A stretch of DNA of 64,000 nt from Ginglymostoma cirratum (Eukaryota). The position numbers and the translations under genes were made by a program. The stretch is taken from positions 6,667,826-6,731,825 of the forward strand of contig JAHRHZ010000091.1 of assembly GCA_024137785.1 (NCBI GenBank), given 5' to 3'. Numbering within the stretch: the stretch's first letter is position 1; each line of letters opens with the position of its first letter. Of this stretch, positions 3,991-28,230 are shown piece by piece. The notes beneath the pieces are model-generated. The model had not been told where the DNA came from. It did no database searches and saw only the letters and a program-made list of their open reading frames with translations.

Positions 3991-4124
3991 TTTAAAATTT
4001 GTTTGTTCCTCTTGAGCAGCATCCACTTTCTAAGGGATTTGGAAACATCAGTGTAATTAGACTGGACTCCGTGCTCGAAATAGGATCTGACCAAAACCCT
4101 CAGTGGTAACAAGGTTATCTCTAT

Positions 4125-4395
4125 CAGTTCTGATGAAAGGTTACACAGCTGAAAAAGTTAAGTCTATTTCTCTATCGACAGCCTGACTTGCTGGGTATTT
4201 CCAATAATTTGTTTTGATTTCAGATTTTCAACATCCACAGTGCAAGTATTTTTCTTTTGCAATCTCAGCCAGTCTATCTTCATTCAGCATAGTATTTACA
4301 ATTTCATAGCTCTGAAGAAGGGTCACTGCTTTTTCTCCACAGTTGCTGCCAGATTTGTTCAGATTCTTCAGCAATTTCTGTTTTTGTTTCAGATT
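4125..4395 (+). mobile_element. Two degenerate single arms of PLE-related family B
   Basis: cagttctgatgaaagg.. at ~4125 and ctgaagaagggtcactg..ttctccacagttgctgccaga..gcaatttctgtttttgtttcagattt at ~4312-4395 match the right arm of the element at 27995-28230. Confidence 0.7.
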
Positions 4396-4649
4396 TATAT
4401 TAAAACTGTTTGAGAGCACTGGGTTCACTAATTCATTGTGTTGGCAGAATAAATACAGAATTTATCTGATCAACACTTCCAGTTTAATATTTCTTTTCAA
4501 TACAATTTCCATTCAGTTAGCTTCATCTTTTGCATTAATTGTCCTATCCTGGTTACTTTTTAAGAGACCAAAAAGTGCAGATTGTGAACATATAAAACTG
4601 TTTCAATAGCATCGCTGCAAAAAAAAAGACAGGTTAACATTTTAGGTTT

Positions 4650-5899: not shown

Positions 5900-6000
5900 G
5901 AAGGGAATGTTTGAAAAATTCAACAGGCCTAATAACATCTATGGAGACAGAAACAGAAACAGAGCTGACATTTCCAGTCTAGTAAGACTCTTCTTCAGAA
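5900..6000 (-). mobile_element. Degenerate arm of PLE-related family B with hammerhead-like motif
   Basis: Reverse complement reads ttCTGAAGAagagtcttactagactgGAAAtGTCagctc. Confidence 0.6.
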
Positions 6001-6065
6001 GGCTTAAACTTTAGCTGTTTTCCAAACACTGCAGAGCTCTTCCCAACTTGTCCATGTTCATGGTT

Positions 6066-6161
6066 AAAGACTGTGGATGCTGGAAATCAGAAACACAAAG
6101 TGAAATTTCTGGAAAGACTCAGCAGGTCTAGTACTATCTGTGGAGAGAAAACAAAGTGAAA
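6066..6161 (-). mobile_element. Left arm of family B element flanking the 28S fragment
   Basis: aaagactgtggatgctggaaatcagaaac..ctggaaagactcagcaggtctag..atctgtggagagaaaacaaagtgaa matches the left arms at 13543-13662 and 27995-28085. Confidence 0.8.
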
Positions 6162-6442
6162 GTGAACAACCCCCAAGGCTTGGTGAATTCTGCTTCACAT
6201 TGATAGCAACAGCCGACATCGAAGGAGCAAAAAGCCACTTATGCCGCCACAAGCCAGTCAGGCATCGCTGTAGTAACTTTCTGACACCTGCTGCTTAAAA
6301 CCCAAAAGGTCAGAAGGATCTGGAGGCTGTGCTTTCACGGCCTGCACTCGGACTGAAAACGAACATCAGGCTAGCTTCTGCATCATGGGAGGTTTCTGCC
6401 ACTTATGAGCTCGCCTTAAGACACCTGCGCGACGATGTGACA
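6162..6442 (-). pseudogene. 28S rRNA pseudogene fragment (large-subunit domain V, peptidyl-transferase region)
   Basis: The + strand matches the reverse complement of vertebrate 28S as recalled: gtgaacaa..gcttggtgaattctgcttcaca.tgatag.aa.agccgacatcgaagga.caaaaagc..gccgccacaagccagt..ctgacacct.ctgcttaaaacccaaaaggtcagaaggatc..gctttcacgg..actgaaaa..gggaggtttctg..tgagctcgcctta.gacacctgcg..tgaca. It has many substitutions and small deletions. Confidence 0.93.
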
Positions 6443-6490
6443 CTCTACCTTCACTCCATAGACCTCTGAAATTTTCCAGCAATTTCTTTT
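6443..6490 (+). mobile_element. Degenerate right arm of family B element flanking the 28S fragment
   Basis: ctctaccttcactccatagacctctgaaattttccagcaatttct resembles the right arm (aactc.gctttttctcca..agac..gctgag..tttccagcaatttctg), inverted relative to 6066-6161. Confidence 0.6.
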
Positions 6491-6590
6491 CATACCCACA
6501 ATTTGGATATTGCTGTTATAGCCCAAACGCAGTAAATACCTCCTACCTCGTCCCTATGAATCTACGAACGTACTAAACGGTCGACTGTAG

Positions 6591-6800
6591 CTCCGCCCAC
6601 ATTCATCACGCAGGCGCCTGGTTCCTGTTTGCCCCGCCCCCACGCACTCTCTGCGCAGGCGCATGGCGTCTGACTCGCCCCCTCGGTTCTCCGTACGGAC
6701 GCACCGACGGTCGCACACGGCCCCGCCCCCTCCTACTGAGCAGGCGCGCTGGTGGCACGTGACCGTCCGGGCTGGAGCCGCGCGGGGGAAATGGCCGCAG
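6591..6800 (+). promoter_or_regulatory. Promoter motif cluster: three GC boxes (Sp/KLF), NRF1 site, E-box, YY1-like site
   Basis: ctccgcccac 6591-6600, gccccgcccc 6631-6640, ggccccgccccc 6719-6730. TGCGCAGGCGCA 6652-6663 fits NRF1. CACGTGAC 6756-6763 is a USF/MYC-type E-box. AAATGGCCGC overlaps the ATG (YY1-like). Confidence 0.7.
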
Positions 6801-13542: not shown

Positions 13543-13662
13543 AAAACAGAACTGCGGATGCTGTGAATCAGGAACAAAAGCAGAAGTTGCTGGAAAAGCT
13601 CAGCAGGTCCGGCAGCATCTGTGAAGAAAAATCAGAGGTAATGTTTCAGGTCCGGCAACCCT
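13543..13662 (-). mobile_element. Single arm of PLE-related family B
   Basis: aaaaacagaactgcggatgctg..gctggaaaagctcagcaggtccggcagcatctgtgaagaaaaatcagaggtaatgtttcaggtccggcaaccct; truncated before the CUGA box. Confidence 0.8.
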
Positions 13663-14419
13663 ACTGTATTTATGCAACTAGTGCTGCAGTGGAACAGATA
13701 GACCTAGTATGCAGAACGTGTATTGCTGCGAACATTCCTTACAAGGAAGGACTTGTGCTCACAAGAATTAATTTTTCTTCAGCTCGCTTTTGTCCATCAT
13801 TGATGTTTGATAAATAACTTTTGTGCAGTTGTGTGAACCTGTTTCAAGGCGAGCTTTGTGGAAAATTAACAAATCAATTCAACTAATATAAAAGATTAGT
13901 TAATTAGAATAAAATTTGGAAGTAGAAAGAAATGCTTCCCACCCTAACTATCCTGGAGATAAACGCACCCAATCAGACATACAGCTTTCAACATATAGGC
14001 ATAAAAGATAAGTATCCACACTTATTCCTTTGTTGCCGTCATTTCAGTTTTGTTTGTGTACTGCAAATGTTGCTACTTCCATCCCAAGCTGTGCTTGAAG
14101 TTATCTTCTCCGTTCACATAAAATAGAAAATTTTGTTTTTTTGGATTTCTTTGTTCTTCAATTTTTTGTTTTTGTGGTCTGTTATCTTCCCTTAATTCAT
14201 TGTTTTGCAAATGTTAATTTTCTAATTAATCTGGCTATCCAGTATTAATTCTGTTTGTATCTACCAATTATGCTGTTCATACAGATTAAAGTTAGTTTCT
14301 AAGCAATGTTTAAGTGTTACTAGATATATCAGTATTCTTTAAAAGCATATAGTTGGGCAGTAATTTAAAGTTTGTCGGTATTCAGTACTTTATTTTGAAT
14401 CATATGAAAGCAAGGGTTA

Positions 14420-27994: not shown

Positions 27995-28230
27995 AAAATA
28001 AAAAGCTGTGGATGTTGGAAATCAGAAATTGGAAATTGCTGGAAAAATTTGGGTCTAGTCATCTGTGGAGAGAAAGCAGAGTCAACATTTCTAGTCCAGT
28101 GACCCTATCTTCAGAACTGGGTTGAGTGTCCTGAAGAAGGGTCACTGGACCACAACGCTAACTCAGCTTTTTCTCCATGTATGCTGGCAGACATGCTGAG
28201 TTTTCAAGAAATATCTGATGTTTTTGTTCT
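27995..28230. mobile_element. Fold-back PLE-related element (family B) with two divergently oriented hammerhead-like motifs
   Basis: Inverted arms around a ~15-nt spacer. The - strand reads agttCTGAAGAtagggtcactggactaGAAAtGTTgac (28081-28118). The + strand reads CTGAAGAagggtcactggaccacaacgctaac (28131-28162) with the GAAA box lost. Confidence 0.85.

Follow-up and report, generated by a model that had tools for sequence, protein, structure and literature searches.

How did a piece of 28S ribosomal RNA come to lie between the two inverted arms of a retroelement in the genome of the shark Ginglymostoma cirratum, and why do both arms stop where the ribozyme of that element is predicted to cut its own RNA? 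The locus lies in a stretch of 64,000 nucleotides, hereafter the window. The answer proposed here, and considered somewhat more probable than its negation, is that the 28S locus is a single old insertion, copied from ribozyme-cut RNA of a Penelope-like element (PLE) to which a 28S fragment had been attached, either by RtcB-type ligation or by an end-to-end jump of the reverse transcriptase (RT). The parts of the locus and its surroundings are as follows.

5908 to 6000, minus strand: separate, older PLE arm keeping the hammerhead region (25.7 bits, model positions -51 to +32), outside the composite
6051 to 6065, plus strand: putative left half of a degraded target-site duplication (TSD) of 15 nt, borderline against random controls
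6066 to 6161, minus strand: left PLE arm (family B, long tail form), from a profile match; the part of the RNA that lies 3' of the predicted cleavage site of the hammerhead
6155 to 6166, plus strand: 6-nt tandem duplication across the junction of left arm and 28S
6162 to 6442, minus strand: 28S rRNA fragment, from Rfam and alignment to the genome's own rDNA, in the same sense as the left arm
6442 to 6488, plus strand: decayed right PLE arm (short form), beginning about one base past the predicted cut
6489 to 6503, plus strand: putative right copy of the decayed target-site duplication, borderline against random controls
6631 to 6793, plus strand: GC boxes and probable start codon of AEBP2, inside a CpG island, given as context

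Arms were detected with a family profile built from 13 family segments. The left arm, which the initial annotation had placed at 6066-6161, matches this profile at 6068-6162 (60.5 bits, E 3e-18) and reaches from its long outer end as far as +4 in the model, counted from the predicted cut, which falls between 6158 and 6159. The motif AGTGAA stands twice at the junction (6155-6160 and 6161-6166), a duplication already recognised at the outset, and the true left junction must accordingly lie between -1 and +3. The stretch first described as about 280 nt of 28S rRNA is indeed recovered by the Rfam model LSU_rRNA_eukarya on the minus strand (111.6 bits, E 8e-26), and its match to the rDNA of the same genome covers exactly 6162-6442 (281 nt) at 78% identity; it shows deletions of about 13 nt and about 8 nt relative to rDNA and represents 297 nt of rRNA (Rfam model ~2640-2935). 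Its 3' end lies just past what is presumably the A-loop of the peptidyl-transferase centre, as the hairpin loop is labelled here. Fragment and left arm both read on the minus strand, the 3' end of the cellular RNA adjoining the 5' end of the element.

The right arm is real but weak. Of this arm the profile recovers 6460-6489 only (9.3 bits, E 0.01 in the window); an inner piece, 6442-6458, agrees with the family start at 14 of 17 positions, its first base being the one after the cut, and is followed by a deletion of about 10 nt. In a pool of random window sequences that includes real family copies, 137 of 20,000 40-mers score as well as the inner piece, and 9 of 3,000 70-mers as well as the whole arm. 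A gappier alternative also aligns 6443-6465 to the continuing 28S sequence, for which reason the left junction is the more secure of the two; the decayed right arm of the initial annotation is retained with this reservation. Left long and right short, the arms have the layout of family insertions, and each ends within about 3 nt of the predicted cut, as had been claimed; the hammerhead core is absent from the locus itself. The three parts have accumulated similar proportions of substitutions (17% in the left arm, 13% in the 28S and 16% in the right arm). The statement that there was no TSD needs refinement, in that 6051-6065 and 6489-6503 form a decayed candidate pair with 8 of 15 identities and 7 transitions, a score equalled by 61 and 93 of 1,500 random controls and hence borderline. 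Around the junctions, the cut-site palindrome of the left arm shares five of six bases with the 28S end, and a 5-nt match of 28S to the arm start lies about 20 nt beyond the right junction. The left 28S junction is one base short of an exact ligation, the precision of the join being blurred by decay and by the 6-nt duplication.

Genome searches suggest that the composite is a single-copy, dead one-off. With the composite as query there was no second copy among 44 matches (the best 40 of 1,571 candidates scored), and with the 3' 792 nt of 28S no other copy sharing the same ends and arms (44 matches, the best 40 of 116 candidates). Neither TSD nor poly(A) belongs to the 28S piece alone. The composite itself carries no evidence of function. 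The proximity of AEBP2 holds as well: its identity follows from a downstream exon (E 2e-34), and about 140 nt separate the end of the right arm from the first GC box. The fragment sits at the edge of the AEBP2 CpG island, retains 8 of 13 CpG, and has 23 transversions vs 15 transitions, ends included. A retrotransposon-derived Aebp2 promoter has been reported in mammals (PMC4411029).

The arms had been ascribed to a hammerhead-type element, and they prove to be PLE arms with a minimal type I hammerhead. A long family B copy (L268) has an RT-coding unit flanked by two direct terminal repeats; RVT_1 is detected in two of four family fragments (E 3e-4 and 1e-4, under the curated cut-off), a DKG-type motif is seen in another copy (L269), and a GIY-YIG-like motif with CxxC is visible by eye beside a terminal repeat, Pfam giving no match for the GIY-YIG endonuclease fragments. 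A census of 125 hammerhead motifs, taken from the loci retrieved without separating families, has stem I paired at positions 1 to 4 in 102, 108, 80 and 70 motifs and at position 5 in 35, and stem II paired in 97-105; it shows a hammerhead of the minimal type I, with 4 bp in stem I and 5 bp in stem II. Rfam recorded no hammerhead in the window nor on five loci, and single-strand folding of four copies did not yield the ribozyme fold. Fold-back pairs of the family are single insertions, because a 10-15-nt TSD flanks 18 of 43 pairs vs 1 of 166 mismatched pairs, and because one arm is long and the other short. Further family B arms in the window (5908-6000, 4121-4244, 4308-4397, 13546-13664 and 27995-28228) all extend beyond the cut.

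How unusual, then, is a double stop at the cut? The exact family B arm motif is followed by the expected next base 5,382 times and by another base 485 times, mostly through point changes. The inner ends of 66 of 118 incidental arms fall at +28 to +40, that is, in the 5' strand of stem I; most arms of family B and of its sister family C end 28-40 nt past the cut, a genome-wide preference. Eight of the 118 end at -3 to +4; once six of these were set aside, being the 28S locus itself or partners or duplicates of arms chosen by pattern, 2 of the remaining 112, all unselected, end in this zone; if ends are independent, the chance of a double stop at the cut is about 0.1-0.2% or less. The double stop at the 28S locus is thus unusual but proves nothing alone.

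It had further been predicted that the junctions of chimeras would cluster at the cut, and family B offers no such clustering. In a test that left out 30 arms picked on the base after the cut, end-pattern matches numbered 172 at the cut, 35 for arms falling short of it by 1 nt and 137 for arms falling short by 6 nt (98, 35 and 30 examined), with 44, 26 and 17 auto-called true ends; corrected for detection, there were about 85-100 ends at the cut vs about 57 at -1 and 115-160 at -6, no excess at the cut in these pattern sets. Many family B ends at the cut are joins with a 4-nt stem-I microhomology. No rRNA occurred in 87 junction sequences at family B arm ends, and a search of family B for U6 chimeras had 0 matches. 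One family B fold-back (L104, G000:C4:30774775) has both arms at the cut with 153 nt between them; it was rejected as a second double-cut case, the cargo being the element's own downstream sequence and the left join having 4-nt microhomology. At L206 (G000:C38:4079881-4082374) and other mirrored matches, identical junctions occur twice, inverted, about 0.45-2.5 kb apart, either as nested palindromic insertions or as assembly palindromes.

The initial annotation had also suggested that other fold-back copies be surveyed for RNA cargo, and in family C such a survey found U6 at the exact predicted cut. Among 48 U6 loci read, one alone (L373) had U6 on a family C tail at the first base past the cut, inside a TSD. 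Pattern searches then gave ten U6-family C loci with unrelated flanks, the U6 3' end standing exactly at the predicted cut:

U6-PLE cut chimeras: L393, L416-L420, L422-L424 and L464 (e.g. G000:C99:563897, C106:646699, C144:76469079)

The U6 portion measures 16-100 nt and always ends in five T, with a precise, gap-free join that shows neither microhomology nor extra bases; the weakest of the ten, L416, has 16 nt of U6 only (E 0.004). L421 fits the pattern and was rejected as a U6 chimera, its sequence not being U6. When the offset was left free (0-30 nt), seven of seven U6 matches lay exactly at the cut. No U6 join was found within 30 nt ahead of the ribozyme GAAA, the region ahead of GAAA being where most family C arms end (98 of 121 at +19 or beyond). 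Two of 39 U6-like 3' ends (5 control matches) are directly followed by a PLE tail, both at the cut. TSDs of 13-16 nt flank four of the ten loci, and the second arm stops near the cut in three of four readable cases (0, -3 and -5). L420 reproduces the layout of the 28S locus with U6 instead of 28S, and in L422 each of the two arms meets U6 at the cut. Three of the ten loci hold an extra inverted piece of U6.

Family C as a whole gives 922 pattern matches for cut junctions among 103,423 arms vs 242 at one control offset, a second control having been dropped after it matched a subfamily variant (13,130 hits). With classes assigned by eye in the first 100 matches each, the excess at the cut is about 2-fold for all and about 4-fold for foreign sequence. 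At 39 family C cut-junction loci (37 foreign-joined and 2 head-to-head) there was no rRNA and no Rfam match. At L421, L431, L444, L449, L451 and L460 solo family C tails start at the predicted cut and have a TSD directly adjoining or no more than 7 nt away; the TSD abuts in L421, L431, L451 and L460. Such tails may be insertions of cut RNA alone. In the fold-backs L455, L462 and L463 the arms meet at or beside the cut, the gap measuring 19, 0 and 3 nt respectively. Self-cleavage in family C is deduced solely from the position of these junctions, and in this light U6 at the cut in ten loci suggests that PLE ribozymes likely cut in germ cells and that the cut RNA is likely joined to host RNAs. 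GUC, the triplet of family C, presumably cleaves better than GUU, that of family B, which would explain the difference between the two families.

Capture of cellular RNA in this genome does not depend on the cut. Among at least 300 candidate rRNA-like segments (113, 95 and 116 candidates), 78 dispersed rRNA loci include four in which the inner end of an arm lies at rRNA or spacer, namely the 28S locus, L172, L340 and L341. In L172 the arm lies inside an 18S pseudogene. L341 (G000:C145:89431213) is a TSD-flanked family C fold-back holding the 28S 3' end and 93 nt of 3' spacer, that is, precursor rRNA 95% identical to rDNA, and both its arms reach about +34. L340 (28S), L370 and L385 (both U6) have a single arm and the 3' end of the cellular RNA joined to the target with microhomology, a 13-15-nt TSD surrounding the whole; they fit cellular RNA primed from the second DNA end. 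Neither of the two clear PLE-rRNA chimeras besides the 28S locus (L340 and L341, among the 78 rRNA loci) joins at the cut, which also speaks against the predicted clustering. From the layouts of L340, L341, L370 and L385 it follows that the cut is no prerequisite for the copying of cellular RNAs by the PLE machinery in this genome.

Other fusions accompany these. In many full-length U6 copies the terminal T stretch leads directly into the 5' end of a tRNA-type SINE, at least three kinds of SINE being involved, and these fusions make up roughly half of the dispersed U6 copies read:

U6-SINE fusions: L369, L371, L372, L374, L378, L383, L387, L389, L391, L398, L406, L407 and others

At L013, L162, L164, L167, L337, L339, L344 and L355 an rRNA fragment is followed by an A-rich linker and a SINE 5' end, several of the fragments stopping where 28S or 18S naturally terminates on the 3' side; they may have arisen by jumps to decay products of rRNA that bore poly(A). 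At L169 (G000:C4:36773452) an 18S fragment, 98% identical, adjoins a telomere-type hexamer repeat at an internal-looking site.

How might the 28S locus have formed? The element protein would have cut both DNA strands and primed cDNA from each end, as the protein of an anole PLE does in vitro, where both strands are cleaved and extended (PMC11167929). The hammerhead would have cut the element RNAs, leaving 5'-OH ends of the kind that hammerhead products carry (PMC7761336). The 3' end of a 28S fragment would then have been joined to the cut 5' end, through RtcB-type ligation before copying or through a jump of the RT off the end of its template, and the 28S-extended cDNA would finally have been sealed to the second cDNA. 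The double stop is likely the result of both templates having been self-cleaved, one of them joined to broken 28S RNA. Reverse transcription in the anole PLE begins some 85-92 nt beyond the cut, a distance similar to the 96 nt of the left arm here; in vitro this PLE used mainly uncut RNA as template, and none of the RNA-seq reads terminated at the cut (PMC11167929).

The initial annotation had proposed a jump of the RT from cut RNA to an abundant cellular RNA. The chimera of cut RNA is supported by the in-line orientation of the 28S, the like divergence of the parts and the recurrent U6 joins at the cut; the jump is less secure, for the U6 cases are accounted for no less well by ligation of a 2',3'-cyclic-phosphate end to the ribozyme 5'-OH. 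RtcB is known to join U6>P to 5'-OH RNA (PMC6789731), and RtcB-type ligation is slightly favoured because the U6 joins are uniform, five-T and gap-free. Jumping keeps a place since U6 is also fused to SINE 5' ends, which normally cannot be ligated, and the decayed 28S junction cannot separate the two routes. Against the cut-RNA origin count the lack of a cut excess and of a U6 chimera in family B, the joins of L340 and L341 away from the cut, the absence of rRNA from the 39 family C cut-junction loci, the predominance of uncut template in the anole PLE, the microhomology to 28S at both junctions, the weakness of the right arm and the borderline TSD.

The chief rival is a single PLE insertion from uncut RNA, in which the RT switched to 28S at microhomologies that happen to coincide with the cut-site palindrome and the cDNAs were sealed likewise. 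The five-of-six microhomology on the left and the 5-nt match about 20 nt beyond the right junction would serve such a switch; L341, with arms running to about +34, demonstrates that capture without cutting occurs; and no hotspot exists at the cut in family B, where 4-nt stem-I microhomology joins make up many of the ends at that site. Both arms would nevertheless have to stop in a zone used by 2 of 112 unselected arms, and the U6 chimeras reveal a route specific to the cut, so that this account is held to be unlikely, if credible. Rather more doubtful is a history in which the fold-back came first and 28S cDNA or rDNA was used later to repair a break in the middle of its palindrome, with loss of the ribozyme core of about 70 nt. 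With at least 300 rRNA-like candidates and thousands of arms, chance adjacency is to be expected, as the arm within the 18S pseudogene at L172 illustrates, and the resolution of ages is coarse. This history has against it that the three parts are similarly diverged, that the 28S piece lacks a TSD or poly(A), that a near-symmetric deletion to the cut would be needed on both sides, and that the orientation of the 28S fits in-line copying.

The possibility raised initially of a 28S-derived, SINE-like family, taken here as one that the PLE would have spread and that the locus would have founded or belonged to, draws on the listing of 28S-derived SINEs (SINE28) for mammals (PMC10946416); with neither a second composite nor a 28S copy sharing ends and arms among the matches scored above, it is very improbable. 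An assembly chimera is more improbable still, to the point of being negligible: the fragment is 22% diverged from rDNA and has its own deletions, and hence does not come from mis-joined rDNA reads, and the locus lies inside a 13.3-Mb contig.

To return to cut RNA joined to a cellular RNA, the ten independent U6 insertions at one base would constitute genomic evidence of cutting, in at least one family and for a minority of templates. A broader proposition, given about even chances on these genomic junctions, is that minimal PLE hammerheads cleave in the shark germline, that host RtcB ligates the 5'-OH ends to RNAs with a cyclic phosphate (U6, broken rRNA), and that the element copies the chimera. 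If true, it would amount to a ribozyme-addressed capture of cellular RNA and to a fossil record of the in vivo cut to the base; if the RtcB route is correct, the 28S locus would be an old, double-cut example. RT-PCR across the join of U6 and tail offers a simple assay for cutting, and U6 joins allow cut sites to be mapped in silico in any genome. RNA capture, known for LINE-1, is extended to PLEs by at least three routes in this genome, and the 28S locus has its value as the lead to the U6 cut-junction class.

Among known systems, the nearest are the U6/LINE-1 pseudogenes attributed to RtcB ligation, in which a cellular RNA likewise lies in the same sense on the 5' end of a retroelement RNA; in these and in the U6-PLE loci alike, U6 ends in a T run and the join is precise (PMC6789731). 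Here, unlike there, a PLE serves as carrier, its own hammerhead would supply the 5'-OH, and the joins fall at one fixed base vs the scattered breaks of L1 (PMC6789731). Human 28S rRNA/LINE-1 chimeras (n=18, median 269 nt, 83% sense) resemble the 28S locus in having a 28S piece of similar size (281 nt here), in the same sense and as a one-off, and differ from it in that the 28S locus has PLE arms on both sides and junctions at a predicted ribozyme cut (PMC13174262). SINE28 of mammals and the 28S locus are both 28S-derived retrocopies, the latter, unlike SINE28, being single-copy and without a family (PMC10946416).

As for PLEs themselves, insertions with an inverted 5'-truncated copy, a one-sided tail and a TSD have been described, and the 28S locus shares the overall layout of unequal inverted arms, its TSD candidate being borderline; capture of host sequence between pLTRs is on record in Adineta, where the cargo consists of host genes or non-coding DNA, the passages compared here mentioning no rRNA, no U6 and no link to a cut (PMC3846280, PMC8557442). 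With the minimal type I hammerheads of PLEs the present motifs share the core, the extra base between positions 9 and 10.1, the G10.1-C11.1 pair and the palindromic 15.2-16.2 (PMC4209133), as well as a tail that extends about 60-100 nt beyond the cut and has two alternative ends (PMC4209133; PAc in PMC11167929). These two papers give cleavage in vitro and no evidence in vivo (PMC4209133, PMC11167929), whereas here genomic junctions mark the predicted cut base. In a literature covered incompletely (few subscription papers and Repbase notes), no rRNA or U6 at a PLE ribozyme cut was found reported. To sum up, U6/L1 and 28S/L1 chimeras and cargo between pLTRs are already known; what appears to be new is the placement of such junctions at the predicted cut of a PLE ribozyme.
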